Part shown: positions 15,882-46,894 of the stretch, one piece after another
Layout of the letters: the number at the start of each line of letters is the position of its first letter
How positions within the stretch are numbered: position 1 is the stretch's first letter
From: a virus
Taxonomy: Duplodnaviria > Caudoviricetes
Virus record (IMG/VR): IMGVR_UViG_3300005323_000056
Location: 1-48,269 of that record
Direction: 5' to 3' (one strand)
DNA length: 48,269 nucleotides
Made by a program: the position numbers and the translations under genes
Notes under the pieces: generated by a model
Seen by the model: only the letters and a program-made list of their open reading frames with translations
Told to the model about the DNA's origin: nothing
Databases searched by the model: none

Positions 15882-17381
15882 TTACTCCTCTTTTTGTTTT
15901 CTTGTCAGATACGATATAAGTAGATTGTAATTGGTAGTACCAATTGCATTTTTAAACTCTGTGGATTTGCCCATTACATAGGTTTTTATTTCATCCCAAC
16001 TTTTCCCGTCTCGATGATAACCTACAACTAAATTATAAGTAGCTGTATAATTTGAATCATAATTGGCTTGAGTTTGCGTGGTTGTGGTTGAATATGATGT
16101 TGACGATGACCCTGCTTTTACCGCTTCCAAAGCAAGCAAGTATGCTTCGTCATTTTCTACTTTTCTGGCATAAGCAACAAGTTCTGACGCACTCGCTTGT
16201 ATTGCACTGTATGCCTGATTGCGTTTTGTCGTTCCAGATGAATATGATGTTCCGGTAGCAACACCAAAGAAACTGGCAATTTCATAATCCGCCACATCAT
16301 TGCTTTTCCATCTTGCAACCAGTTCATTATATGTACTAACTGCCTGATCGTAATCAACCTGCATAATTCCAAGTTGACCTTCCGAATATTCCTGTTCTTC
16401 TGTGGCTTTTGAATACTGTCTGCTATATGCGGCATTTGCTTGTTGTATGGCAAGCTCTTTCATAGCAATGTTGTTTTCAAACTTCTGCTGGTCAAGATCG
16501 GCCTTAAATTTGTCCAATGCAAGGCTTTGTTCAAATGCGGTATCTTCACGATCGGCTACAAATGAAGCAAGCTCCATGTAGTAGTTTCTATCCTCGAGGA
16601 ACCGTTCATAGGCTTTTTCTTCGTATGAAACCTGTAATTCCATAAGCCGACTTGTCAATGCGGATTGCGCTACAGACGAATATAGACCGCCACGTCCAAC
16701 CATCATGTCTGTTACTTGCTGTTCCACTTGTGAAGCGGCAAGCTTGTAGGCATTGTCGGTAGAAGGGTCATAGGCAAACTCAAGACTGTTAGCCTTGTCA
16801 AAGTATTCCTTCCATGCCGGTGGTTGTTCCGCCGTTGTTTCTCCGCCTGCGCTGGTTGTAGTTGTCGTAGTGCTTGATGTTCCGTCTGTTCCACCATAAC
16901 CGCTTCCACCACCACCACCGCCTGATTGCTGTTGCGCCTGTGCTGTTTGCACACCAAGACTAGCGCCAGCGGCAGGGCCGTTTACGTCACCACCAGATAA
17001 CGTACCAGGATTATATGGCGTTACAATGGAATCAGAACCGGAAGGGCTAGGATATGGCGTGTTGTTTGGAACTTGACCGGCATTGGCTTGTACGGTTGAC
17101 GAAGGATACTGAGGATCAGGCAAACCCAATGTATTTGTAACAGGCGCAGTAGTAGGTGTTTCAGGAATGGGCTGTACAACAACCGGCTGGACAGTGCTAG
17201 GCGTATTGACTATTTGCTTGCCCTGAGAACTGATAACGCCAGCGGACAACGGAGTGCTTGTGGCGGTGTCCGTTGACTGGGTTATTGGATTTTGCGTATT
17301 TTGCTGTGCTAGATTTTTTAGCGTTTCGGAAGTTGTTGATGTTCCGTTATCGCCTATTTCAATACCTTTTACTAATGCCAT
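15882..17381 (-). CDS. Internal virion/DNA pilot protein
   Basis: Low-complexity Q/T/G N-terminus; FAYDPSTDNAYK...GRGGLYSSVA motif; position before the large ejection protein. Confidence 0.7.
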   Translation of the reverse strand: MALVKGIEIGDNGTSTTSETLKNLAQQNTQNPITQSTDTATSTPLSAGVISSQGKQIVNTPSTVQPVVVQPIPETPTTAPVTNTLGLPDPQYPSSTVQANAGQVPNNTPYPSPSGSDSIVTPYNPGTLSGGDVNGPAAGASLGVQTAQAQQQSGGGGGGSGYGGTDGTSSTTTTTTSAGGETTAEQPPAWKEYFDKANSLEFAYDPSTDNAYKLAASQVEQQVTDMMVGRGGLYSSVAQSALTSRLMELQVSYEEKAYERFLEDRNYYMELASFVADREDTAFEQSLALDKFKADLDQQKFENNIAMKELAIQQANAAYSRQYSKATEEQEYSEGQLGIMQVDYDQAVSTYNELVARWKSNDVADYEIASFFGVATGTSYSSGTTKRNQAYSAIQASASELVAYARKVENDEAYLLALEAVKAGSSSTSYSTTTTQTQANYDSNYTATYNLVVGYHRDGKSWDEIKTYVMGKSTEFKNAIGTTNYNLLISYLTRKQKEE

Positions 17382-22489: not shown

Positions 22490-24442
22490 TTACCTGCTCC
22501 TTCCAATCTTCCTGTAGCGCATTTCAATGCTATATATGTCCAACTGGTATACTGAAGTATTTTCCAGTTTCAATCTGAAATGATGCTGTCTGCAGATTTC
22601 GGAACCAGTGGTATAAACGGTAACGACCTTGTATTCATCATCAAGATCGCTTGTAGTAAACGCCTTTAACAATACCCAGTCATCCGCGTCATACGTGGTG
22701 GTTGTGCTGTAATAGACATTAAGAGTTGAACCGCTGTATAACCGTCTGCAAAGTATATTTATCTGCGTAAGTGTACTGTCATCGGAAACGGAGTTAGCAA
22801 ATGCTTTTGTGCAAATATATGAAGTAGTATCATAGGTGGAACCCATGTATGTGCGAAGATACCATGTGGTTTCTGCTCCATCCCATTTTTCAGCAACAGC
22901 CCAAAGAGTTGAAGAACCCGGTCTGTTAAAATAATATGGATTCCATAAATAATTCAAATCCTCGTTTTCTTCTGCCAATCCTGCGCGTTTCCACCATGAC
23001 CGACGTTTAATGTCAAACATATAATAGTAATGCTGTTCTATTGTAGTAGAACCCGGTGTTTCTGGATCAGTGTCTATTAATGACAATTGCCTCCCACCCA
23101 TTACATATAAATTATTATTGTCTGCAATAAGATTTCCTTCATTTAATTTTATTCCACCATAGATACCATTGGATATAGAACCATTTGTGTAAATCGGGCA
23201 ATTTATTGGTTTTGGATAACTGGAACCATCAAACTCAAATATTTTACTATCATAATTAAAATATGCAGTATTATTAGAAACAGCAACTCCCGTGTCAGAA
23301 GTATATGACGTTGAAATGCCAATCCCCGAAATATATTTTGAAGAACTGAAAGTATCATATGAATAACCTTGAAACACCCAAATGCTTTCTTGCGCCCAAA
23401 TGAACAAAGAGTTTCCGAGTACGGCAAGGTTACCCAAATAACTTTCCTGTTCGTATGTCCAGTATCCTGCATCAGCCTGAACAAATCCGGTTACGGGAGC
23501 AATACCAATCTTGATATTATCAGCCGTTCCAGATGCCGTGTGTCCAGCGGCAGTTATGCTTGTAATACTTCCCCATGTATCCGGAGTAATGTACTTCCCT
23601 GTAATAGGCGTGTATGTTTTTGATTGAGCAACACCCAAAGAATCTGTTCCAACTACTGCAAGAGTGCCAAGAGCATCTGCCGTAACAACCGTGGTTATAG
23701 TAAACTCAAGAGGACGAGGAACGTCTGGTTGTGCGGCTATCGTGTATGCAGTAGAATTCAGCATTGCGGTACTGGTAACAATCTTATCGTCATCTTCCTC
23801 AAGTCCATACCATGAAAAAGGATCGCCAGCTTTGCACCACCATAACTTATTTGACATATCAATAGCAAATATCCGGTTATAATGTGAAACAATCTTTCTC
23901 GGGTAAAAAGGCAACGTAACGACCATTACGTTTGTATAATCATAAAGTAGTAAGGTCTTATTATTTTGCGTAGTGAAACAAACATACCGTTTTGCTTCTG
24001 TATAATACATACACATAGAAGTGATTCCAGCAGTACCAGTATGCACAAGGTTATATGCGGAAATATCTTTTATTGTTCTTGTATTTGACGTAACATTAAG
24101 ATCTACTAAATCATCAATAATAGTATCATGGTCTAATTCACCATCCATTTGAACTATTATAAGATGCTCATACTTTGTAGAACCAGAATAAAAATAATCA
24201 CCAATGCCGTCTACAACTTCGCCAGTGTTATACATCATTGTCTTATATTTGCTATTAGTTGCTATCGTCTGTAGACTTATAGTATCTCCGTCACTATTTG
24301 GTCTGGCATCCCACGCGTCAGAAAGTACGTTGTCATACAAAGATAAAGGATCATTATAATCATTTATCCCTAACATTGGTCTTGTCATGACGGTTTTTGT
24401 CTGACCAAAACCTGTTTTCCTATTGTACATACTACCAGCCAT
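22490..24442 (-). CDS. Tail nozzle/DNA stabilization protein (P22 gp10/T7 gp12-like)
   Basis: 650 aa; GIND...LYDN; SHYNRIFA...LWWCKAGDP.SW; beta-rich; synteny after the adaptor. Confidence 0.7.
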   Translation of the reverse strand: MAGSMYNRKTGFGQTKTVMTRPMLGINDYNDPLSLYDNVLSDAWDARPNSDGDTISLQTIATNSKYKTMMYNTGEVVDGIGDYFYSGSTKYEHLIIVQMDGELDHDTIIDDLVDLNVTSNTRTIKDISAYNLVHTGTAGITSMCMYYTEAKRYVCFTTQNNKTLLLYDYTNVMVVTLPFYPRKIVSHYNRIFAIDMSNKLWWCKAGDPFSWYGLEEDDDKIVTSTAMLNSTAYTIAAQPDVPRPLEFTITTVVTADALGTLAVVGTDSLGVAQSKTYTPITGKYITPDTWGSITSITAAGHTASGTADNIKIGIAPVTGFVQADAGYWTYEQESYLGNLAVLGNSLFIWAQESIWVFQGYSYDTFSSSKYISGIGISTSYTSDTGVAVSNNTAYFNYDSKIFEFDGSSYPKPINCPIYTNGSISNGIYGGIKLNEGNLIADNNNLYVMGGRQLSLIDTDPETPGSTTIEQHYYYMFDIKRRSWWKRAGLAEENEDLNYLWNPYYFNRPGSSTLWAVAEKWDGAETTWYLRTYMGSTYDTTSYICTKAFANSVSDDSTLTQINILCRRLYSGSTLNVYYSTTTTYDADDWVLLKAFTTSDLDDEYKVVTVYTTGSEICRQHHFRLKLENTSVYQLDIYSIEMRYRKIGRSR

Positions 24443-24454
24443 TTACAATACCTC

Positions 24455-25393
24455 TTAATGCCATTGTTTGTTATCTCTTGGCTTTCTTGGATAGACACGT
24501 TCCTTGTTCATTCTGTCCTTCCACAAAGCCGTGAGATAATTGTCATACTGCTGGTAGAACCTGTCAGCCTGGATGGTGTCAGGACTTGCGCCAACAGAAG
24601 CAAGCATATACGCTGCATAAACGGCAAGCATTTCATGAAACCTGCTGTCAAACTCAGGTGACGCGCTTGCACTGTCTGCCGACAAGTCTGTGAGATATTT
24701 GTGATAACGTATTCGAATATTATATCCAGAAGTGGCAGGAACAGGATACAGCACCATTGTCTTGCCACCAGCAGATGTGTAATTCTGCCTGAACGTGTTG
24801 GAATAACAGGTATCGTCATCCTTATATGAAGGCTCATATTTGGTGTAATTATACCGATCAGTCTGAACGCCAACTTTTATTGTATCCGCCGTACTTCCGG
24901 TAACCCATGACGAACCGGTAATGCTGGTTATTGCGGTATAAACATTGGTACTCCAGACCCTTGAATTTGCCAATGGCGTAATCGTTTCGGTAACAGTTGC
25001 GCCGTCTGAAGTGCCAACAAGTACAATAGTTCCCAAAGTGTCAGCAGTTGCAACCGTTGTAACAGTAAACGAAATCCTGCTTGCACTTGCCGGTTGATTG
25101 GCTATGGTATAAGATCCTACTTTCATATTTGTAGAAGCAACAACATAGTCAATCTCGTCAGCGTCCTTCTCTATCTCAAGATATTCAATCTGTGAAATGT
25201 CCTCAATGGTTGATGGATAGGTGTACTCATCATCATTTGCAATGGTTTCCAGTGTTTCATCAACTGCAATAAGCCCAAAACCTTCTGCTGACAGGTCTTT
25301 TTGAGCCATGTTCATGTATGTTACGACATTCGCAGACGTATCAGAGTGAGGATATAGTTTAAGAACTAAAGCCAGCAAGGCAGTAACATTCAT
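24455..25393 (-). CDS. Head-tail adaptor (P22 gp4/T7 gp11-like) with inserted beta-domain
   Basis: YMNMAQKDL...EYTYPS...LYPVP...IRIRY...PEFDSRFHEMLAVYAAY. Confidence 0.75.
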   Translation of the reverse strand: MNVTALLALVLKLYPHSDTSANVVTYMNMAQKDLSAEGFGLIAVDETLETIANDDEYTYPSTIEDISQIEYLEIEKDADEIDYVVASTNMKVGSYTIANQPASASRISFTVTTVATADTLGTIVLVGTSDGATVTETITPLANSRVWSTNVYTAITSITGSSWVTGSTADTIKVGVQTDRYNYTKYEPSYKDDDTCYSNTFRQNYTSAGGKTMVLYPVPATSGYNIRIRYHKYLTDLSADSASASPEFDSRFHEMLAVYAAYMLASVGASPDTIQADRFYQQYDNYLTALWKDRMNKERVYPRKPRDNKQWH

Positions 25394-25422
25394 AATATTA
25401 CCTGCTTTCTACTATTGCTTTA

Positions 25423-26043
25423 TCAACAAGGTCTAGGAATAGGCTCCCAAATGATTGCCCATAATGTACCGCCACCAGAATTGATAAAACTAAGTGTTTC
25501 ATCAACGGTAACATTCTGCCACGAATCCCCTGCAATCAAAGGAATGGATTGAGTAGCGGCGGCAGTAGCGGTTGTAATGGGATTAAAATAGGTTGTAGTT
25601 CCCGTAAGGATCTGAAAAGAAACGGCTAACCCAGGCGCATTGATTCCAATATCAGCAGGAACACCAACAACAATCGTATCATTTCCAGAACCAGCATCAA
25701 TAACCCAACCAGAGCCAGCAACAGCAGTTACAGTTTTAAAATACTTGGTTCCGCTTACTGTAGAACCAGCAACAGGAGTAATAACATCAGTAATTGTCCG
25801 ATCAAAAATATCTGTTCCTGTAACCGTAATTATTCCTTGAGTATCGGCGGTTCCACTTGCCGTTGTAGTTACCGTGATTTTGCTTGGCCCGTATGGTTGT
25901 GCGGCAACAGTATAAGCGCCAACCTTCATATTTGTGGTTGTAACAATCCTATTGGTAACGGCGGCACTATTGATTGTGGCAGTTGGAATAATCGCTCTAA
26001 CCTTCTGATTTTTACAGTCAAATACCATTTGCGTAACAGCCAT
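25423..26043 (-). CDS. Virion structural protein carrying the shared beta-domain
   Basis: T/V/G-rich; ITVTGTD...TDVITP.AGSTVSGTKYFKTVT. Confidence 0.7.
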   Translation of the reverse strand: MAVTQMVFDCKNQKVRAIIPTATINSAAVTNRIVTTTNMKVGAYTVAAQPYGPSKITVTTTASGTADTQGIITVTGTDIFDRTITDVITPVAGSTVSGTKYFKTVTAVAGSGWVIDAGSGNDTIVVGVPADIGINAPGLAVSFQILTGTTTYFNPITTATAAATQSIPLIAGDSWQNVTVDETLSFINSGGGTLWAIIWEPIPRPC

Positions 26044-27185: not shown

Positions 27186-28115
27186 TCAGCCCTGACTGGC
27201 AATAACTCCAAAGCCTGGTGATACGAAGGCAACGGCGAACTCTTCCTCACAGGTGCTTTCAGTATTCTTGTTCTTGAAGTTGAGTTCCGTCTCAATCTGC
27301 ATACCACCGCGATACTGGTGAACGCAACCGGCATCGGGAATGGTCTTGTCAAGCAGGAACCACGGCGAATAGGTATCTCCTTTGGTTGTATGGTCAATGT
27401 AGTCATTGAAGATAACGCCCAAGGGTTCTTTCTTCAAACTGTTGATGGTATTGGACAGCTGATGCGCCAGCAACGCGCTTTCCAAAATCTCATAAACATC
27501 GAACTGGTTCATGGTATTGGTCAGTAAATGCGTGGCACGAGTGGGATAGCGATTGCCAGCCTGGTTCTTGATAAGGCTGAACTGGATGATACCGGCTTTC
27601 AGGTTGTCAACGGAGATAGCGCCGGTAACGAGGTTGTCATTGTACTTGCCCGGAGCATTTGACAGAGGATGAGTGCTTGAAAACACATACACAGCATCAG
27701 CCATAGCCGTAGCGAACCCGTCATTATAAGCGTCAGCAACAACCTTTTCTTTTGTTTCGATCATAGAACGAATGAGTTTCGTGCCAAACATGCCATTGAC
27801 GGAAAGCGTCTGATCGTCCTTCATCTGCTTGCGAGTGGCAAACACGCCTTTGCCATACGTCTTGATGGTGATCTCGGTTTTCCAGTCTTCCGCAATGCCC
27901 TCAAAGGTATAATCATTGCCTTCAGTGTGCAACGCGGCGTTTCCAACGTCGCCTACGGTGAGATACGTGCCTACTTCCAGCGGTTGATTTACCTTGTGTA
28001 CGATCTGAGGCCACTGTTGTTCCTGCGGCACTTTTGCCGCTTCGTTGAAAACAAAGTTGATACTTGCCCTTGCCTTTTTAAGATTTGTAATGTCAGAACT
28101 TCTGCCACCAGCCAT
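27186..28115 (-). CDS. Major capsid protein (HK97 fold, Mu gpT-like)
   Basis: 309 aa; EGNDY.F...KTYGKG...TR..MKDD...ETKE..VAD..NDGF...D...FSSTHPL...PWFLLD. Confidence 0.85.
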   Translation of the reverse strand: MAGGRSSDITNLKKARASINFVFNEAAKVPQEQQWPQIVHKVNQPLEVGTYLTVGDVGNAALHTEGNDYTFEGIAEDWKTEITIKTYGKGVFATRKQMKDDQTLSVNGMFGTKLIRSMIETKEKVVADAYNDGFATAMADAVYVFSSTHPLSNAPGKYNDNLVTGAISVDNLKAGIIQFSLIKNQAGNRYPTRATHLLTNTMNQFDVYEILESALLAHQLSNTINSLKKEPLGVIFNDYIDHTTKGDTYSPWFLLDKTIPDAGCVHQYRGGMQIETELNFKNKNTESTCEEEFAVAFVSPGFGVIASQG

Positions 28116-28152: not shown

Positions 28153-28584
28153 TCAGATATACAGCAATGACCGCAAGAAACGGCCAGTAGCCACGCGCCG
28201 GGTATTGTCATATTCATTGACGAAAATCGAACCAGTTGACGTATCGTTCAGGTCAAGATACATTTCGCCTTCGGCAGAACCGTCATCAACCGCACCATCA
28301 ACATAAATGTCATAGGCAATGCCAACCATAGCATCAGTGACTTCATCAACGGTACTACCCTGATACAGGTCAAACTCGAACTCCTGGTCAGGATGATACA
28401 TGGTAACAATGGAACCGCTGGCACAATCCTCAACAGCAACGCCAAGAATGATGGTCGTGGTAATGCTTTCCGTAGCGGGAGCCGCACTTGTGGAACTTAG
28501 AACAAGCAACTGCCCCTTGTTGATAGCGGCACCGGCAATCCATTTCACATAGCCGTGTTTATCAGGATTTACAGGTCTAATCAT
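28153..28584 (-). CDS. Capsid decoration/cement protein
   Basis: IAGAAINKGQLLVL...ILGVAVED; lies between scaffold and capsid. Confidence 0.65.
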   Translation of the reverse strand: MIRPVNPDKHGYVKWIAGAAINKGQLLVLSSTSAAPATESITTTIILGVAVEDCASGSIVTMYHPDQEFEFDLYQGSTVDEVTDAMVGIAYDIYVDGAVDDGSAEGEMYLDLNDTSTGSIFVNEYDNTRRVATGRFLRSLLYI

Positions 28585-32626: not shown

Positions 32627-32854
32627 TTACTTCATCCCTTCATCTTTTGGGTGCATGGATTTGAAATACTTCATGTCGAAAAGCCCAGTATCAGGATTAA
32701 TGAAAGCTCCAGCGCCCTTTTCCGACACCTCAATTATATCATGATTATCAAGAGGTTTTAGACGCTGTAGCTCCGCAAGCAAAAGATTGACCTTTTCCTC
32801 AAGACTGATGATCCTTGTGAACACGTCCTTGATGTTTATCTCGTTATCTGGCAT
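32627..32854 (-). CDS. Hypothetical protein
   Basis: AGGAGGAG RBS; lies between TerL and portal. Confidence 0.6.
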   Translation of the reverse strand: MPDNEINIKDVFTRIISLEEKVNLLLAELQRLKPLDNHDIIEVSEKGAGAFINPDTGLFDMKYFKSMHPKDEGMK

Positions 32855-34547
32855 ACTTTGATCTCCTCCTCACTTCCTTCTTGAACCGGTTTTCATGCTC
32901 AAGCATATAGTTGTCTGCAACCTCTCTGTCAATCTTACCTTTTGCAACAGCTATCTCCAGTTCGCCTTTCGTCCAGTAACCCGTAATCACCTTGATTTCT
33001 GCTATCTCATAACCCACCTGCTGTTCTTTCGCCTTCAATAAGATCGACCATGCAATGACCAGATCGTCATGAGCACCAGGTTCTGCGCCCATGAAAATGT
33101 TCTTGTTCTTCTTGTCCTGCCTTGTAAACGACTGCATTTCCAGCAACGTTTCCACATCGTAATACTTATCCATGTTATGCTTTGACCATGCAATGTTATT
33201 GTCAATGATGGACTGCCTGTTACCGCTGGTAGTCCTGAACCCCAGTTTTTGCTCCATAGTATCGTGATAATCGTCCTTTGGAGACTCCCTTTGATAAATA
33301 TTCTGATAACCCCATTCCTTCAGCTTGAATATGGGATAATCCGAGAAGTTCACTTCAGGTGCTATCAAGGCGTCATTGTACAGTTTCAGCAAGCCATAAA
33401 CCTGTATCATGCAATGGTCTGCACTGTCAAAAGACCGGAACACGGCTACCTGCTCATCCGTGATATTATCGCAGACCTGCAAAACATACGGGTCAATGCC
33501 CTCGCCAGCGGTATCCAATGCCGCAACATAAGGATGCTTGGGATTGGGCATGAAATAAATGAGTGTTTCCCCAGTGTCGCTTTCCTCAGGATGAACCGTT
33601 GATATGACCGGCATGTCCCTGTCATCGGCAGTATACGCAAAATTGACTTTTGTTGGCGGATTATTCTGATGATAATCCTGCAAAAACTCAAGCCTTGCGG
33701 CAATCTTGTTGGCATTGAACACGGATTCTCCGGCAGTTCCAGGCAGACCAAGACATTCAGTACGGTACTTGTAAGGATTGGAATACTTCAGCCTTTCCAG
33801 TTTCGCAGCATACGCACCTGGCTTGGAATAATCGGCTGTTCCATCTTTGTTCAGCTTGAAATTCCATTTATTGTCCTTGTATGTTGAGTGATGAATCAGG
33901 CAGTCAGAAGTTACCATAACTCCTTCAACCAATGTTTCAATGGTATAAGTCCTTGTATTGGGCGTTCCGTCAAAGTTTAGGGCTGTTTTCATCCAATGAA
34001 AGATCCAGAAGGTAGCCAAAGGCGGGTTGAAGGAAACGATAACCCGGCATTTCATGCCATAAGAGCGAATGGACGTGTCCAAAGTGATCAGGTTTTCCTC
34101 AATGGGTTCCTCTGTAAGTTCTTCATACCATAAATCAGTTGCGTTCCCATGCTTGAAAGTCAATGACTTGACATTTTCAACCTTGTCCATTCCTGTAAAG
34201 ATGATCTCGCTGTGAGTGACCTTGTTGTACATGCGCATATCCGGGTTTTCGCGGATATCCCAAACGCCTTCCAGATGAAACTCATAAATGACCTTGTAAA
34301 TCTCGGCAAAGCACGAGTTTCTACAGTCAGTAGCCTGTTTCCTCATGGCTACGAGGTTCCTATGCTCCAATGTTGACAACTGCAACACCAATCGTTGCGC
34401 TATTACCTTTGACTTTCCGCTGCCACGGCCGCCCCAAAACACCTCATAATTAAAAATCTTATACAAATACGGATAAAACGCGGGATTGAACACATTCTCG
34501 CTGATATTTATCTCATATCTTGGGGCCATTGCCGAGGCTTTTGTCAT
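32844..34547 (-). CDS. terL: Terminase large subunit (PBSX-like N-terminal ATPase)
   Basis: Walker A GGRGSGKS, F.GMD..E..KS, WYEE.TE Walker B, SFNPP, HSTYKDN, nuclease LDTAGEG.D...HDDLVIA. Confidence 0.95.
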   Translation of the reverse strand: MTKASAMAPRYEINISENVFNPAFYPYLYKIFNYEVFWGGRGSGKSKVIAQRLVLQLSTLEHRNLVAMRKQATDCRNSCFAEIYKVIYEFHLEGVWDIRENPDMRMYNKVTHSEIIFTGMDKVENVKSLTFKHGNATDLWYEELTEEPIEENLITLDTSIRSYGMKCRVIVSFNPPLATFWIFHWMKTALNFDGTPNTRTYTIETLVEGVMVTSDCLIHHSTYKDNKWNFKLNKDGTADYSKPGAYAAKLERLKYSNPYKYRTECLGLPGTAGESVFNANKIAARLEFLQDYHQNNPPTKVNFAYTADDRDMPVISTVHPEESDTGETLIYFMPNPKHPYVAALDTAGEGIDPYVLQVCDNITDEQVAVFRSFDSADHCMIQVYGLLKLYNDALIAPEVNFSDYPIFKLKEWGYQNIYQRESPKDDYHDTMEQKLGFRTTSGNRQSIIDNNIAWSKHNMDKYYDVETLLEMQSFTRQDKKNKNIFMGAEPGAHDDLVIAWSILLKAKEQQVGYEIAEIKVITGYWTKGELEIAVAKGKIDREVADNYMLEHENRFKKEVRRRSKYAR

Positions 34548-36299: not shown

Positions 36300-36735
36300 G
36301 CCCGTGGTCATGGCCATACCATGCCATGAATCATGACATAAATAAATAACAATAGCATGATGCCCTATAGATAAATATCATGGCCATGACATAGCACAAT
36401 CTGATCTGGATCTATCATGCAACATCTGCCTGGAGCTCCTTGGATACATCCATGCCTTGATCATTCATGTATCATGATGTATATAGATATCCACATCATG
36501 AGTTCATATGACCATGACATGTAATATTGAATATGACATGATATGATATTGATAATGATGATATATCATAATAGATATGCTTAGATATGATTATAAATAT
36601 CACGTCATATCATATCCTGGATAAATAGACATCACATAGAATAATAGATATATCATTAATCATAATCATGATACATGAGAACATGAGATATCAATAGATA
36701 TATATAGATATAATATATATATAGATAGATATCAA
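36300..36735. repeat. CATG/ATAT-rich non-coding block between the divergent arms
   Basis: About 18 CATG counted by hand in 36309-36686; no ORF of 60 aa or more. Confidence 0.8.
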
Positions 36736-41219: not shown

Positions 41220-41522
41220 GTGAAAATACCGGAGGATGATTACATTTCCGTCAAGGATTATCAGAAAATGTGCGGCTATGCTTCCAAATCTGCCGTTCTT
41301 GCAGCCATACATTCCGGGCGATTGGAGGCGCTCAACTTTTATGGAACGTATCTCATTCGTAAAAATGCCATATTGCAGACCAACCGCACAGGCTTGCAGT
41401 ACGGCAAGTTCCGCGCCAGCCAGGAATCAAAAAAGCGAACCATGCAACTGTTAGCCGTTCAGGGCTTAACATGGGAAGACGTTTATGGGAAGGATGATGA
41501 ACCGGATGACAATCCAGACTAA
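41220..41522 (+). CDS. Helix-turn-helix DNA-binding protein
   Basis: YISVKDY..MCG...KSAV..AI.SGRLEA....GTYLIRK. Confidence 0.7.
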   Translation: MKIPEDDYISVKDYQKMCGYASKSAVLAAIHSGRLEALNFYGTYLIRKNAILQTNRTGLQYGKFRASQESKKRTMQLLAVQGLTWEDVYGKDDEPDDNPD

Positions 41523-42138
41523 AATCAGGTTGCTTTTTATCTTTTTTATCATGGCTCTTTTTATTTGCGCTTGCATTGTACATGGAAGGCTCCTGCAAGC
41601 CGATTTAAGGCTTGGTCAACTTGAACAAAGGATATTTGACCTTGAATCACGGCAAAGCGATTGCAGGGGCTTGCAGGGGGCTACAGCCACAACTGCGACA
41701 ATGCAAACAACTATTATTGAGGATAACGCAACGTACAGCCTTGTCGATATGTCAAATCTGCCAACGGAATCAACCGTTGAAAGCATGGATTATGACAAGG
41801 AAGTTGCCCGGATTGTTTCGCTGGAATCGGACGGAAGTTATGAAGGTTCCCTTGCCGTAGCATCTGTCATTTACAACCGGCTGGAAAGCGGAAGATGGGG
41901 CAATACAATTCATGACGTAATATCCGCAAAGAATCAGTTTTCAACGTATGGAAGCACAAAGCAACGTGATCTGACCGACAATGTTATCCAGGCTTGCATT
42001 GACGCCTGTAACGGCAAGCGCAATCTGCCTTCATCCGTCATGTGGTTCTGTACTGAAAGCCATTATGCCAAGAGCGCATTTTTCAGGGGATTGACGTTAT
42101 ATGACCGGTTTGCCGGTTCCGTATGGTGTGAGGAATAA
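41506..42138 (+). CDS. Membrane-anchored cell wall hydrolase (SleB/Hydrolase_2-like)
   Basis: N-terminal TM; VARIVSLES.G...G.LAVASVIYNR..SG.WGNTI.DVI...NQFS. Confidence 0.85.
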   Translation: MTIQTKIRLLFIFFIMALFICACIVHGRLLQADLRLGQLEQRIFDLESRQSDCRGLQGATATTATMQTTIIEDNATYSLVDMSNLPTESTVESMDYDKEVARIVSLESDGSYEGSLAVASVIYNRLESGRWGNTIHDVISAKNQFSTYGSTKQRDLTDNVIQACIDACNGKRNLPSSVMWFCTESHYAKSAFFRGLTLYDRFAGSVWCEE

Positions 42139-42219: not shown

Positions 42220-42414
42220 ATGAGCAAAGCAAAATATCGGAAAGGGGGAAAGATAACATCACTGGATGAACTTGTAAAACAGGATTTTGTCTATTGGCGC
42301 GACAAAATAACACACAAGGGATGGTTTATGTCTTGGCAGTTTCGCATGACCTGCAATGCTATAAATCATGGTGTTATATCCTATGCGATTAAAAAGGAGG
42401 ATGAAATTAAATGA
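42220..42414 (+). CDS. Hypothetical protein
   Basis: AAGGAG RBS; KYRKGGKITSLDEL...HKGWFMSWQ. Confidence 0.65.
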   Translation: MSKAKYRKGGKITSLDELVKQDFVYWRDKITHKGWFMSWQFRMTCNAINHGVISYAIKKEDEIK

Positions 42415-43424
42415 ACGAGCTTATCAAGTACCAGACTGACCACGGTGAGGTTGAGCTTTCACCGTCTATCATCCGACAGTATCTCGTACCGTCAGGAACG
42501 GCGGTATCAGATCAGGAAATCAAGCTGTTCCTTGAGCTTTGCAAGTATCAGGGCTTAAACCCGTTCTTGCGCGAGGTTTATCTTGTCAAGTACGGAACTT
42601 CCCCGGCAAGCATGGTCACTGGCAAGGAAGTGTTCACAAAAAGGGCAATGGCTAACCCTAAGTTTGCAGGGCTAACCGCAGGAATAACCGTTGTTGGCAA
42701 GGAAAACAAGTTGTACCGGCGCGAGGGTTCTTTGCTGTTGCCCGGAGAAACGCTGATTGGCGGTTGGGCAAAAGTTCATATTAAGGAATATGCCGTTCCG
42801 TTCTTCGATGAAGTTTCATTGAACGAATACACCGGAACAGGCCCGCTATGGAAAAGCAAACCGGCTACGATGGTTCGCAAGGTCGCCATTGTCCATGCCT
42901 TGCGAGAAGCGTTCCCGGAACAGTTCGAGGGCTTGTATAGCCAAGAGGAAATCAATACCATTGATGCTTCTAAACTGCCAACAGGCGCGGTTCAGCCGGT
43001 TCAGCCGGTTCAGCCTGACAATGCAGATGATGCGTCCTATACGGACTATTTGGAACAGCCAGACGCGGCGGAAGATCCGGCTCCACAACAGAACGTTGCC
43101 CCTGCCACGCCACCGCAGCCAGCACAACCGGCAACCACGGCAAAAGCGCCGTATCCTCAGGCAACGGCTCCTGATGACGTTGGTTCGTTCAAGTCGCCGT
43201 TCTTCAAGAAGTATCCCGGCAAGACTTTGCGCGAGATTTACAATGCCAATTCCGGTTATGTCAAATTCATGGGTGAAAACGGCAAAGATCCTGCCATTCG
43301 TGAGATCATCAAGAAGTTCCTGGCTACGGTTGAAAAGGCGCAACCGGTCAAGGACATTACGCCCATAGAAGACGAGTACGGCGCTCCGCCACCGGACAAT
43401 ACCGATCTGCCGTTTAACATATGA
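42411..43424 (+). CDS. bet: Single-strand annealing recombinase (Red-beta/Bet, RecT superfamily)
   Basis: SDQEIKLFLELCKYQGLNPFLREVYLVKYG, LIGGWAKV, WKSKPATMVRKVAIVHALREAFP...GLYS.EE. Confidence 0.9.
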   Translation: MNELIKYQTDHGEVELSPSIIRQYLVPSGTAVSDQEIKLFLELCKYQGLNPFLREVYLVKYGTSPASMVTGKEVFTKRAMANPKFAGLTAGITVVGKENKLYRREGSLLLPGETLIGGWAKVHIKEYAVPFFDEVSLNEYTGTGPLWKSKPATMVRKVAIVHALREAFPEQFEGLYSQEEINTIDASKLPTGAVQPVQPVQPDNADDASYTDYLEQPDAAEDPAPQQNVAPATPPQPAQPATTAKAPYPQATAPDDVGSFKSPFFKKYPGKTLREIYNANSGYVKFMGENGKDPAIREIIKKFLATVEKAQPVKDITPIEDEYGAPPPDNTDLPFNI

Positions 43425-43439
43425 AATGAGGGATGAACA

Positions 43440-43640
43440 TTGAAAAAATCGTTATTGAAAGTGAAGGACTTGTGCGAGTTGTTCGGCATATCCTCAAGCA
43501 CAGTCCGCAGATGGGTCAAAGAGGGTATGCCCTGTGTCCGTGTGGGAACCCGTATTTTAAGGTTCAGGGAACCGGACGTTGTTGAATGGGTCATGAGCAA
43601 CAAAAAAGCCGACAAGAAGCATCATGAAAGAATGAATTGA
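43440..43640 (+). CDS. Excisionase-like HTH protein
   Basis: LLKVKDLCELFGISSSTVRRWVKEGMPCVRVG.RILRF. Confidence 0.8.
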   Translation: MKKSLLKVKDLCELFGISSSTVRRWVKEGMPCVRVGTRILRFREPDVVEWVMSNKKADKKHHERMN

Positions 43641-43646
43641 GGGGCG

Positions 43647-43841
43647 GTGAGTAGCGTGCTGACAAGTAATGCACATTGGCGTTGCGACTATTGTGGCAGG
43701 TTTATCAGCCAGTCTGACATTGATTCTAAAAAAGCAATCAGCAGCGAGGAACTTAACGTATTTGGATATGACCCACCAGACGCCGAATATGTGTGGGTGA
43801 ACTATCACGCCAGGTGTAAAGAGAAACATGAAGGACGGTGA
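43647..43841 (+). CDS. Hypothetical protein
   Basis: RCDYCGRFIS...HARC. Confidence 0.55.
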   Translation: MSSVLTSNAHWRCDYCGRFISQSDIDSKKAISSEELNVFGYDPPDAEYVWVNYHARCKEKHEGR

Positions 43842-43847
43842 GTAACC

Positions 43848-44084
43848 ATGATATTAACAGATTACGAAGCAAAGCAAGCGTATGACAGGACGTTGGGAGA
43901 ACCCGAAGAAAAGAAAAGCGATTGGGAAGTTGAGGTAACAATCACAAAGACATACACGGGATCATGCAATGGCACAAGGGCGCAAGCGGAAGCAAGCATG
44001 AAAGCATGGGCGATTGAGCAGGACGGCAACTATAACCCGGACGAGGATTACATTGAGATTGAATCATACGAGTTTGGAGGGTGA
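43848..44084 (+). CDS. Hypothetical acidic protein
   Basis: 78 aa, in operon. Confidence 0.6.
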   Translation: MILTDYEAKQAYDRTLGEPEEKKSDWEVEVTITKTYTGSCNGTRAQAEASMKAWAIEQDGNYNPDEDYIEIESYEFGG

Positions 44085-44088
44085 TTCC

Positions 44089-44664
44089 ATGTACACAAAT
44101 CTAGTGTCCATTGACAACGACTATCAAGCTGAGGAACTCATACGCCAGATCAAGGAAGAACAGTCCGAGAAAAACCGGCTTGTTGATGTATGCAAACATG
44201 AGATCCAGCAGTATCAGGACAAGATTGAGGAGTTGGAAGCCGGTTACGCCAAAAGCACGGAGAACGCCATGTTCATGCTTTCCGCATATTGCAGGGCAAA
44301 GGCAAACCACAAGACCAAGACATTGATAACGTATGCTTTGCCTTCAGGCAAGCTGCAATGGAAAAGGAAAGATCCCAAAGCGATACAGGACGCCGACAAA
44401 TTGCTTGCATTTGCCAAGAAATATTTGCCTTCATGTGTCAAAGTTGCTGAATCTGCTCAGTGGGAAGAAATCAAGAAAAAGATTGAGCTTGTCTATGAAA
44501 CTCATTATGAAACCGATGAGAACGGCGAACTTGTTACAGATGCCGAGGGCAACCCGGTCACAACAGAAAAGCCAGTCTATGTTTTCAAAACCGCAGACGG
44601 TGAGCCGGTTGCGGTTGATGGCGTTACCCTTGTGGAACAGCCAGATATGTTCGAGGTAAAATGA
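44089..44664 (+). CDS. Mu Gam-like host nuclease inhibitor
   Basis: IDND..AE..IR.I coiled coil; KTK....Y.LPSGKL.W; LL.F.K; ES..W.E.KK; VDGVT.VE.PD.FEVK. Confidence 0.8.
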   Translation: MYTNLVSIDNDYQAEELIRQIKEEQSEKNRLVDVCKHEIQQYQDKIEELEAGYAKSTENAMFMLSAYCRAKANHKTKTLITYALPSGKLQWKRKDPKAIQDADKLLAFAKKYLPSCVKVAESAQWEEIKKKIELVYETHYETDENGELVTDAEGNPVTTEKPVYVFKTADGEPVAVDGVTLVEQPDMFEVK

Positions 44665-44665
44665 T

Positions 44666-45919
44666 ATGGGAAGTATTTACGGTTCAGACGCAATAGTGTA
44701 TATTGCAGAAGAAGATATTAAGTGCGGTCATCTTGCCGTTGTTGACAACAAAACAAGACGGTTACGAAAGGCAGATGATATAGCGTTCAACTTTGTCATC
44801 CAAGAGCGTGATGCTGGTAAGAAAGCGTATGAGCAATACTTAACAGTTACAACAGAATCGCCAAAGTTCAAGAAAGGCGATACGGTACGGCTTATTGATT
44901 GCTACACGAAAGATCCAATATATAAGCGATTCAACCGTAAAGAACGCAAGATCATGTCGCAATTTGCAAACACCGATCTTGAAATAGAGTTTGGTTATGA
45001 TGGGTTTTGGGGCGTTAAACATATTCCCTTCATGCTTCCTGAATCTTTTCTTATCCATGCCGACAAAAAGTTCAAGACCGTTGTGTCCATCTCTGGCATA
45101 GACCAGAACGGCAAGCACGTTACGGAAGAGATACCATGCACTGGTGTGAGCAAGAACGTGTTCAAGACGGTTGGCAGACCAGCCCCGCAAGTGGCTTTCA
45201 ATCCGTTGCATACCGTTTGCCCTAACTGCCTGAAATCATTCCACAGGGACGAAGAACCCTATTGCACCCATTGTGGGTATCCGTCGCATCATAAAATGAA
45301 CGGAGAGATTACCAATTGGTGGCGTGACGAGTGCCGCGAACAGCCGGTAGGGCGTTACGATGACTGCACAGGGTGGGATACTCTATATTGCGGAGGACGC
45401 CAGAACGGGAAGTCTCTGCAAGCATTTGCAGCCGAGTTAAACAGAATTGCAACTAACTTTATGGCTGTCATTAAAAAGGATCTCACGGAAGAAGAATTTG
45501 AAACACTAAAAAGGCAACTTGAACAAAAATATTCCGATCTTATGGTTGGCAGAGGCACCTATAAGTCTGTGATTGTCGCGTCTTTTGACAAGCAGATTAC
45601 AGAACTCAAGAAGCGCATCATTCCCGAAAAGCGCAAATGGACGGAAGCGGAGATGCGGGAAGCCAAAGATATTGTCTATGGCTTGATGATTGACCGTTCG
45701 TTTTCGGCAATACAGGTTGATTCTACTCATAGTGAAAAGAGCAAGGTGATAACAGCCCATTATATCCAAAGGCAATATGACAATTCGTGGTCTATTATAG
45801 AGGGAGCATCGGCGAAATGTTCTGACGGCGACGAATACAACGAAGCAATAGGCATTATGGTTGCTGTGTGCAAACTGTGCAAAGAAAAACTTCCATCATG
45901 GATCAAAGGCGGTGCTTAA
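44666..45919 (+). CDS. Modular 417-aa protein containing virion/packaging-protein-like fragments
   Basis: KFKKGDTVR SH3-like module, zinc ribbon, GGRQNGKS, GRGTYKS, C-terminal AKCS.GDEYNE.IG..VA module. Confidence 0.8.
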   Translation: MGSIYGSDAIVYIAEEDIKCGHLAVVDNKTRRLRKADDIAFNFVIQERDAGKKAYEQYLTVTTESPKFKKGDTVRLIDCYTKDPIYKRFNRKERKIMSQFANTDLEIEFGYDGFWGVKHIPFMLPESFLIHADKKFKTVVSISGIDQNGKHVTEEIPCTGVSKNVFKTVGRPAPQVAFNPLHTVCPNCLKSFHRDEEPYCTHCGYPSHHKMNGEITNWWRDECREQPVGRYDDCTGWDTLYCGGRQNGKSLQAFAAELNRIATNFMAVIKKDLTEEEFETLKRQLEQKYSDLMVGRGTYKSVIVASFDKQITELKKRIIPEKRKWTEAEMREAKDIVYGLMIDRSFSAIQVDSTHSEKSKVITAHYIQRQYDNSWSIIEGASAKCSDGDEYNEAIGIMVAVCKLCKEKLPSWIKGGA

Positions 45920-46068
45920 TGGTAAAACTGTATTCGCTTACAGTACACGGAACAAACAAGACATGGGCGTTTGAGATTGAAGCGGAACCGGAATGGGTTG
46001 ACGATTGGCGCAATGACGGTCTTGAGATTGACGAGATAGTATGGCAAACGGAGGGGGCGGTTAAATGA
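45919..46068 (+). CDS. Hypothetical protein
   Basis: TAATG-coupled start; DWRNDGLEIDEI. Confidence 0.6.
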   Translation: MVKLYSLTVHGTNKTWAFEIEAEPEWVDDWRNDGLEIDEIVWQTEGAVK

Positions 46069-46538
46069 TACTGTTGGCGATTGATCCTGGGAACGAGAAA
46101 AGCGCATACGTTTCTGTTGATGTTGAAACATATAAGCCGATCCTGTTTGACAAAATAGAAAACAAGAAACTATTGCGCTTTATAAGGGATGCTGGATTCG
46201 ACTATTCATATGCGGTAATTGAGTCTGTTGCGTCGTATGGAATGGCTGTTGGGAAAGAAGTATTTGAAACTTGCATTTGGATTGGAAGGTTTGACATGGC
46301 AATTCATTACGAAATGTGGATAATACCTTCCCTTGTCTATCGCAAAGACGTTAAACTTAATTTGTGCGGATCACCTAGAGCAAAAGACAGCAATATCATT
46401 CAGGCATTGAAAGACAGGTTTGGCGACAAGGGTACAAAGGCAAATCCCGGCTGGTTTTATAATTTCAAATCGGATTGTTGGCAAGCCTATGCTCTTGCCG
46501 TTACATGGATTGACAATAACAAGGGGAAACAGCAATGA
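46065..46538 (+). CDS. RuvC-like Holliday junction resolvase
   Basis: ILLAIDPG...VIES...GMAVG..VFET..WIGRF...VK..LCG...AKD...D.WQAYALA. Confidence 0.8.
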   Translation: MILLAIDPGNEKSAYVSVDVETYKPILFDKIENKKLLRFIRDAGFDYSYAVIESVASYGMAVGKEVFETCIWIGRFDMAIHYEMWIIPSLVYRKDVKLNLCGSPRAKDSNIIQALKDRFGDKGTKANPGWFYNFKSDCWQAYALAVTWIDNNKGKQQ

Positions 46539-46870
46539 TAAGATCCGGTGACAATTCTCCGCTGTTTACCGTGTCGTTCGTCAAGCATGAGCTGCGAAAG
46601 GACGTTGAAGCAACCCTGTTTTCCATTCATGACAAGGTTGTTGACAGGAACGGCAAGCCAATAACGTACAAGGACAAGACCGGCGAGGTCAGAGAAAAAC
46701 TGTACTATCTGCTTGTAACCGTATGGGAAGACATTCCGCTGTTCGATGGCGATCAGGTACGCTTGCTGTCTTATTCTGACCTTTCCGTGTTCCAAATGAC
46801 AAACAAGGCCGGTTACACAAACACTTACTATTCCATATCCGCAACCGTGGAAATTGTAAAACAGTCTTGA
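46535..46870 (+). CDS. Putative OB-fold ssDNA-binding protein
   Basis: Beta-rich; FSI.DK...Y..VTVW....L.DGDQV.L; located in the replication module. Confidence 0.45.
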   Translation: MIRSGDNSPLFTVSFVKHELRKDVEATLFSIHDKVVDRNGKPITYKDKTGEVREKLYYLLVTVWEDIPLFDGDQVRLLSYSDLSVFQMTNKAGYTNTYYSISATVEIVKQS

Positions 46871-46894
46871 CAAAGACAATAATGACCGTATAAT
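46867..46894 (+). promoter_or_regulatory. sigmaA consensus promoter of the replication operon
   Basis: TTGACA-N16-TATAAT, then GAGGTGA RBS. Confidence 0.8.

Follow-up and report, generated by a model that had tools for sequence, protein, structure and literature searches.

A phage gene of patchwork design: apparent late-protein fragments on a conserved, predicted dimeric domain, with a possible role as bait for host immune sensors

Here we describe a gene of patchwork design in a groundwater phage of the Caudoviricetes (IMG/VR record IMGVR_UViG_3300005323_000056). The window, the whole stretch of 48,269 nucleotides that was analysed, makes up a complete virus record and has terminal repeats. 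The gene lies at 44666-45919 on the plus strand, occurs once in the genome and encodes a protein of 417 amino acids (aa), in which a patchwork N-terminal region (aa 1-320) precedes a conserved C-terminal domain, called the anchor below. As judged by sequence comparison, the protein holds three well-supported pieces of late phage proteins and four weak ones. We put at roughly 40% the probability that it serves as immune bait for host sensors. A preliminary description, made by eye, had proposed such a decoy from five short peptides (segments a to e). The open reading frame (ORF) was confirmed between a Mu-Gam-like gene and a RuvC-type Holliday junction resolvase gene, and the five peptides lie where they were described, except that segment d begins one residue earlier than quoted. 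The zinc ribbon, a strand-loop at aa 40-58, an SH3-like module and the conserved C-terminal domain are features beyond that description.

Two of the pieces resemble the large terminase, TerL. Segment c (aa 239-252; 45380-45421, plus strand) is a terminase Walker A, as the preliminary description had recognised. Among 25 of the phage's own proteins it scores best on TerL, and none of 500 shuffles reaches that score; its module scores 29.9 against Terminase_1-type TerL, and a blind scan with position-specific scoring matrices (PSSM) gives p=0.024 for the Walker A of the 417-aa protein. The preliminary description had seen no Walker B, but a terminase Walker B-like strand is present at aa 213-228 (45302-45349), preceding the Walker A. 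The top 4 of 519 ORFs retrieved by its module (M36) are all TerL (E 0.002-0.014), and hhalign aligns the module with TerL Walker B at probabilities of 85 (score 34.6) and 79. The donor-type regions lie in the phage's own Terminase_3-type TerL gene (32844-34547, minus strand), at 34407-34451 for Walker A and 34104-34154 for Walker B. In that TerL the motifs occupy aa 33-47 and aa 132-148, an order spanning about 90 residues that is absent from the 417-aa protein. As a separate observation, the TerL frames at two other loci are longer (939 aa at L004:1152-3971 and 958 aa at L042:626-3502, against 567 aa here), which suggests large insertions, possibly inteins.

Large terminase ATPase domains (PF04466 Terminase_3, PF03354 TerL_ATPase, PF05894 Podovirus_Gp16) are the source type of the Walker pieces. 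The 417-aa protein shares local homology with them at the Walker A and the Walker B strand, but it has no full domain and no nuclease, and its motifs are degenerate and out of order. The placement of the Walker B-like piece before the Walker A argues against a folded ATPase. The matches cover 11-19 columns, and the protein has no terminase match in Pfam, PHROGs or NCBIfam, where library scans returned the zinc ribbon only. The claim that it lacks a full ATPase fold thus stood, and by its sequence the protein is not an ATPase.

The third piece is a helix-glycine loop-helix block at aa 270-320 (45473-45625), about 50 aa in length and homologous to the conserved core of a family of late proteins. 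In this phage the family is represented by a 499-aa virion protein (15882-17381, minus strand), of which aa 200-253 (16623-16784) are the donor-type region. The whole 417-aa protein scores 78 against it (0 of 300 shuffles), the only clear match among the 25 own proteins; a 1945-aa protein gives a weaker match (p=0.013). Among the 75 window proteins, aa 271-317 match the 499-aa protein at E 6.5e-4. The position of its gene among the late genes and its homologues, found in 3 of 300 Clostridia-class genomes, suggest an ejection-type or internal virion protein, although it belongs to no named family. At one locus (L176) the homologue lies directly past a 459-aa gene that is nozzle-like by gene order only.

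The preliminary description had read this block as two peptides, a portal helix (segment d) and a second terminase peptide (segment e). The terminase assignment of segment e was not sustained. Segment e alone scores 32 on TerL and 31 on the 499-aa protein, with 1 of 500 shuffles reaching the TerL score, but for this piece the 499-aa protein outscores every TerL window in 8 of 9 members of the family. Between the start of the helix and a conserved tyrosine the spacing is 26, as in the 499-aa protein, in 6 of the 9 members (25 in two and 22 in one). Because of these two results, segments d and e are most simply viewed as a single putative fragment of about 50 aa from a 499-aa-type protein.

The portal resemblance of segment d, which the preliminary description had proposed ahead of any database search, is ambiguous. 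A tblastn search of the whole 417-aa protein against 50,697 phage records gave three matches, of which the top two were portals (aa 273-368; E 0.3 and 0.6) that probably count as one event. Against the phage's own portal, however, segment d gives p=0.12, and the segment lies in register with the 499-aa protein. In the PSSM scan a portal set seeded from the tblastn match (portal14) gives p=3e-4, a value that is circular because of that seed, whereas independent Clostridia portals give p=0.71. The best ungapped helix scores are 54 for the seeded portals, 38 for an independent Clostridia portal (at the same helix) and 17 for the 499-aa protein in register. Because the helix fits HK97-type portals better than the 499-aa protein, aa 270-291 may carry a portal-like overlay. 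A different candidate, the PVPFSKEYYG stretch of the family as a copy of a P22-type portal, was rejected with a score below its reversed control.

Three tests that were blind to position, with late families that had been chosen after the motifs were seen by eye, support the presence of true late-protein fragments in the family at the level of sequence profiles. When the 69 family sequences were compared by phmmer with the 75 window proteins, four of the six best matches fell on aa ~200-253 of the 499-aa protein (P0024, 5.3e-6; an anchor-less ORF of the sister phage L003, 1.5e-4; the 417-aa protein, 6.5e-4; P0002, 5.8e-3). The PSSM scan used 14-residue stretches, 11 profiles from natural loci and 60 shuffles per sequence on 65 sequences, four being too short. 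The family gave 31 of 715 tests at p<0.01, against 15 of 1243 on 113 natural early proteins, and 15 of these 31 matches were on Walker A or B. Finally, 45 modules were clustered de novo, five anchor remnants were dropped and the other 40 were aligned by hhalign to 14 late-protein profiles. Seven of 560 alignments scored at least 25, against 0 of 560 with reversed columns (best reversed 20.1).

The seven alignments involve five modules, three of which occur in the 417-aa protein. They comprise the Walker B of Terminase_3 and of own-clade TerL (both with the module holding aa 206-231), the Walker B of Terminase_1 (P0022 and P0025), the Walker A twice (aa 241-266), the 499-aa protein (aa 296-321) and a capsid FSxxHP stretch (M23, score 26.2). 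The capsid stretch, with its donor-type region at 27660-27701 on the minus strand, is copied in five relatives and not in the 417-aa protein. At least two terminase families, Terminase_3-like and Terminase_1-like, are copied at both Walker motifs. A further match, of module M11 to Terminase_3 (23.5), was discounted as probably due to chance, since M11 forms the end of an SH3-like module. Of six hand-cut cassettes, five ranked the predicted donor first among 14 references, four of these five with low scores. The earlier proposal that fragments are swapped like cassettes on a conserved scaffold therefore held against reversed, shuffled and natural controls, and the pattern is stronger in the relatives than in the 417-aa protein itself.

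The other pieces are weaker. Segment a (aa 11-27; 44696-44746) is a strand that had been likened to the decoration protein, and its putative model is a cement-like protein at 28153-28584 on the minus strand (Phage_cement_2, E 0.0033, under the cut-off). This donor was ranked first of the 14 references, but at 15.7 against a best reversed score of 14.9; alone, the segment gives p=0.34 among the 25 own proteins with 500 shuffles, the setting used for each segment. The corresponding module (M9, 11 members) places the window's cement protein at the top of 519 ORFs (E 0.024), and the cement profile gives p=0.18 for the 417-aa protein in the PSSM scan. Sister phages carry two cement-like genes in tandem (L003:15477-16383 and L042:8612-9515) where the window has one. 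At aa 40-58 (44783-44839) a degenerate Walker A-like strand-loop resembles Podovirus_Gp16-type packaging ATPases. Its cassette (4 members) ranks gp16 first of the 14 references (18.4 against 14.1 reversed), and the gp16 profile gives p=0.18 in the PSSM scan.

Segment b (aa 138-169; 45077-45172) is a hairpin that resembles a beta domain of three virion proteins. The preliminary description had proposed this link, and the beta domain was indeed ranked first of the 14 references (17.7 against 12.6 reversed; 4 members). The score is low, however; the segment alone gives p=0.058 against its putative model, a 206-aa virion protein (25423-26043, minus strand; 5 natural copies), and its module score of 18.2 lies within the reversed range of the module-profile test. 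The beta domain, of about 95 aa, is inserted in three adjacent products encoded at 22490-26043 on the minus strand (the 206-aa protein, an adaptor and a 650-aa protein), and it also occurs in two L043 proteins. Pfam, PHROGs and NCBIfam give it no name, and tblastn against the phage records found no match.

Two further modules lie between these pieces. The stretch at aa 66-132 (44861-45061) is common to most of the family (M0, 35 members) and is presumably SH3-like, judged by eye; it matches none of the 14 late-protein profiles (all scores <20). Four relatives without late-type motifs (P0027, P0051, P0030 and P0034) carry tandem SH3-like modules on the anchor and reach up to 602 aa. A four-cysteine zinc ribbon occupies aa 182-210 (45209-45295; DZR_2, E 1.2e-4, or 3.2e-6 on the segment).

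All of these modules precede the anchor, aa 319-417 (45620-45916), which defines the family. Among 1.84 billion representatives phmmer found 64 proteins, almost all of them matching aa ~315-417; four more from a further search and the anchor-less L003 ORF bring the set to 69. All nine queried members that are present in the cluster collection form one-member clusters and are unnamed or "hypothetical". The anchor model (pLDDT, the predicted local distance difference test score, 93) has a helix, a three-strand sheet and a helix. This alpha-beta-beta-beta-alpha topology resembles that of double-stranded RNA-binding domains (dsRBDs), to many of which it gives Z 5-6. T7 gp1.2 (7u65; Z 6.2, root-mean-square deviation (rmsd) 2.7, 71 residues aligned), SECphi27 Gp77 (9y6u; Z 6.1, rmsd 2.9, 79 aligned) and SPO1 Acb4 (9e4w; Z 4.9) share the arrangement but have 6-14% identity to the anchor, so that no function is transferable. 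All of these matches lie below the level that implies kinship, as Z <8 marks a common arrangement, and Foldseek found no PDB match at E<=0.001. Gp77 is described as an Erf-like ring protein (PMC13017515). The anchor is predicted to form a symmetric homodimer (ipSAE 0.72 against 0.09 for the best control, 100% contact agreement between runs, pLDDT >=82). Of 30 solved pairs, 20 attain the mark used, as does 1 of 23 single chains; with a custom alignment these counts are valid only roughly.

The family members for which DNA is available sit among recombination and replication genes. In L007 the next gene downstream is visibly like the window's resolvase, and the genes after L006 and L008 are presumably RusA-like. 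Directly past RecT in the sister phage L003 (L003:140-529, minus strand) lies a 129-aa patchwork gene, found in that contig only. It has the zinc ribbon and the helix-loop-helix block in common with the 417-aa protein, a piece like its own portal, and no anchor. Among 61 proteins it gives p 3e-6 to the virion protein and 3e-3 to its own P22-type portal.

Content and order of the pieces differ between members. By descriptive patterns, late-type motifs occur in 27 of the 69 members, with two or more in 17 and three or more in 10, and their order varies; these counts serve for distribution only, since a comparison of the patterns with shuffles is circular when the patterns were written from the members. 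A tree of the anchor (67 rows, 97 columns, bootstrap not settled) conflicts with cassette content as read from the sequences. P0002 shares aa 231-320 with the 417-aa protein, and the tree groups it with P0003, P0010 and P0026 in a starred clade to which the 417-aa protein does not belong; P0004 is separated from P0026 despite near-identical N-termini.

The pieces are not recent copies. No DNA-level repeat links the 417-aa gene to its donor genes (best blastn E 0.18), which rules out a recent copy or a DNA-level decoy. Between cassettes and donors the proportion of synonymous differences (pS) is saturated at 0.75-0.81, and the residues still match (proportion of nonsynonymous differences, pN, 0.26-0.46, a value biased because the alignments were picked on residue match). 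In the L006/L007 pair the Walker B stretch, of 19 codons, has pN 0.04 and pS 0.29, while 95 codons give 0.09 and 0.36; the pattern is purifying, on few sites in one close pair. The pieces were probably captured by recombination, and the saturated synonymous sites together with the one informative pair point to their retention by selection. Ranked by conservation, four of the six matched donor windows fall in the top 2-10% (both TerL motifs, the capsid and the 499-aa protein), with portal windows at 18% (P22-type) and 75% (HK97-type).

Fragment mimicry by viral proteins is known; here it would take the form of a patchwork of late-protein pieces on a previously unnamed anchor family. Three published cases come closest. 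DSAD1 of SPbeta competes with the tail tube protein for the cavity of the sensor DSR2 and does not activate it (PMC11263360). Trigger competition without activation is the mode proposed for the 417-aa protein, but DSAD1 is a structure-proven case of one trigger and one sensor, whereas the 417-aa protein would present several motif copies on a shared anchor, on the evidence of sequence. Fold searches with the anchor did not list DSAD1; the cassette region has no usable model. T4 vs.8 (PMC13601566) is likewise a phage gene that is not a terminase but has Walker A and B motifs derived from one. It has a whole ATPase-like domain with conserved motifs and is toxic with EcAvs2, whereas the 417-aa protein has pieces of about 15 aa, in reversed order and among unrelated cassettes.

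The nearest match in design is found in Bodo saltans virus, where ankyrin-repeat ORFs carry 5' fragments of essential viral genes and have been proposed as decoys (PMC5871332). In both cases fragments of viral genes lie 5' of a conserved anchor domain, and in both the decoy role is hypothetical. Bodo saltans virus is a eukaryotic giant virus with an ankyrin anchor, polymerase and MutS fragments and 148 paralogues; the gene described here is a single-copy phage gene with a dsRBD-like anchor and packaging and virion motifs. An ankyrin match is absent from the 62 family members scanned. No phage protein of patchwork design was found in the literature searched (mostly non-subscription, with supplements outside its scope), nor in the accessible parts of an anti-defence catalogue (10.1101/2025.06.06.658234) and a 2026 review (PMC13728456).

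As immune bait, the patchwork protein would occupy host sensors before the real late proteins appear. Its gene is probably expressed early or in the middle, given that it belongs to the RecT-Gam-resolvase cluster and lies on the non-structural strand. The dimer would present two copies of each peptide, readers of short motifs or of unfolded strands (Upx-, Lit- and CapRel-like sensors) would bind single pieces, and the bound sensors would stay off if the pieces are too scrambled and degenerate to trigger them. Buried Walker strands shown as free peptides would fit such readers. Published accounts describe capsid detection by Lit and CapRel through short motifs (PMC13581612), Upx modelled as threading unfolded terminase core strands by beta-augmentation and an isolated 11-residue helix held by Avs2 (both PMC13601566). 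It is more doubtful that the dimeric anchor displays cassette-shuffled epitopes of several phage types, taken from catalytic and core motifs of their terminases, capsids, portals and ejection proteins, so that one early protein titrates several unrelated sensors at once.

Several points weigh against the bait proposal. Avs sensors use wide interfaces, complementary in shape, that enclose folded cores (PMC13581612), which makes a decoy aimed at Avs, as first suggested, less likely than one aimed at Upx-, Lit- or CapRel-type readers. The stand-alone terminase-like T4 vs.8 is toxic with Avs2 and not protective (PMC13601566), and free motifs could therefore trigger rather than block. The 13 targets listed in the accessible part of PMC13581612 include no sensor of ejection or cement proteins. 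By the patterns used, 42 of the 69 members lack late-type motifs, so the job of the anchor need not be anti-immune. Scanned separately against Pfam and PHROGs, as the preliminary description had suggested, the segments gave no terminase, portal or structural model at E<=10, and among 19 relatives the best such library matches are at E 0.006-0.12. A profile of the 499-aa protein built without the phage's own copy does not detect the cassette. An HNH-type gene of the window phage matches the Walker A profile at p=1e-4, and such strings therefore have other sources. The family members are related, so the tests are not independent, and the choice of late families followed the sight of the motifs. 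The apparent enrichment of conserved motifs is partly ascertainment, because only conserved motifs stay recognisable after divergence.

The most serious alternative, which we consider unlikely, is that the N-terminal region is near-neutral recombination scrap. The anchor would do the work (dimer formation, or the binding of a host protein or nucleic acid) and would tolerate any additions picked up from co-infecting phages, with the adjacent RecT system supplying the pieces. Such tolerance agrees with the members that lack late-type motifs and with modules that are mostly not late-like, with the one-member clusters of every queried member found, with the proximity of RecT and the degenerate motifs, and with the fact that only pieces from conserved motifs get noticed. 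It does not readily explain why both Walker motifs recur from at least two terminase families, why identities persist at saturated synonymous sites with low pN/pS in the one usable pair, or why an anchor-less gene with the same block stands past RecT in a sister phage. That the matches arose by chance, in an enzyme or nucleotide binder with a fold of its own kind, is mostly refuted and in our view highly improbable. Segments a, b and d are individually weak and the library scans lack a late-protein match, but the Walker B precedes the Walker A, order and content differ between relatives, a relative matches the virion protein at E 5e-6, and reversed controls give 0 of 560. A single-sequence model of the full-length protein is uninformative here (pLDDT 36), and no usable model of the cassette region was obtained.

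Two other functions were weighed. The pieces could act as dominant-negative peptides that disturb assembly or packaging in competing phages or in prophages that have been induced, or they could slow assembly of the phage itself. Foreign-type pieces (Terminase_1-like, gp16-like Walker A, HK97-type portal helix) in a phage whose own TerL is Terminase_3 and whose portal is P22/SU10-type would suit this idea, as would ejection and cement pieces, which are assembly parts without a known sensor. Walker A and B, however, are active-site elements and not oligomer interfaces, and the best-supported piece copies the phage's own clade, which would carry a risk of self-poisoning; we judge interference quite unlikely. 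It is improbable, in our view, that the protein serves as bait or adaptor for host factors outside immunity which act on nascent late proteins (proteases, chaperones, EF-Tu-like factors), or as a tether by which the anchor reaches such factors. Chaperones and proteases read buried core strands, the kind displayed here, and the nearest folds to the anchor include the host-target binders T7 gp1.2 and Acb4; but Z <8 reflects a common arrangement, and such factors need no exact Walker residues.

The surroundings of the gene are those of a recombination cluster. Its start lies one base past the Gam stop codon, with GAGGT upstream; RecT and the Mu-Gam-like gene occupy 42411-44664 and the resolvase (phrog_1770) 46065-46538, all on the plus strand. 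The late genes are on the minus strand and encode the TerL, a P22/SU10-type portal, a Mu gpT-like capsid, the cement-like protein, the adaptor and large unnamed proteins. Homologues of the capsid, the portal and the 499-aa protein occur in prophage-like regions of genomes from the class of a Cellulosilyticum metagenome-assembled genome, and on this basis our guess is a Clostridia host. The stretch shows no variants in two DNA sequencing runs, possibly its source, and no RNA data set was listed as containing it.

Other searches added little. Word-indexed homologue searches with the full 417-aa protein found only itself and no shorter match, and no viral-contig loci were recovered. The family had no match in a genome contig collection and was not found in 400 Clostridia-class genomes, apart from one match with stops (E 9e-4). 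Searches by tblastn against the phage records were uninformative for aa 255-312, aa 134-172, P0066, the 206-aa protein, the virion-protein core and the L003 ORF. Sequence searches of the PDB, including the aa 40-58 cassette, gave no relevant matches, and the ESM Atlas gave no feature match.

Elsewhere in the early region, 41485-42138 on the plus strand encodes a cell wall hydrolase (Hydrolase_2) whose N-terminus bears a hydrophobic segment, and similar genes also lie upstream of the recombinase in L003 and L005. The non-coding stretch 36300-36700, between divergent gene blocks, holds promoter-like hexamers at regular spacing that hint at repeats. At 46867-46894 on the plus strand a site matches the sigma-70 consensus at 12 of 12 positions, upstream of a 53-aa helix-turn-helix-like ORF and the replication initiator.

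For essential late proteins, escape by mutation from the sensors that read them is not easy, which raises the question of how phages cope. With its repeated copying of invariant late-protein motifs into an accessory gene, the family offers a direct test of the decoy idea. If the multi-epitope decoy is true, the list of cassettes would be a natural map of the epitopes that bacteria read, including those of not-yet-found sensors of ejection and cement proteins. If the role is non-immune, shuffled self-fragments retained by selection on a shared dimeric anchor would still be an architecture that we did not find described for phages in the literature searched.

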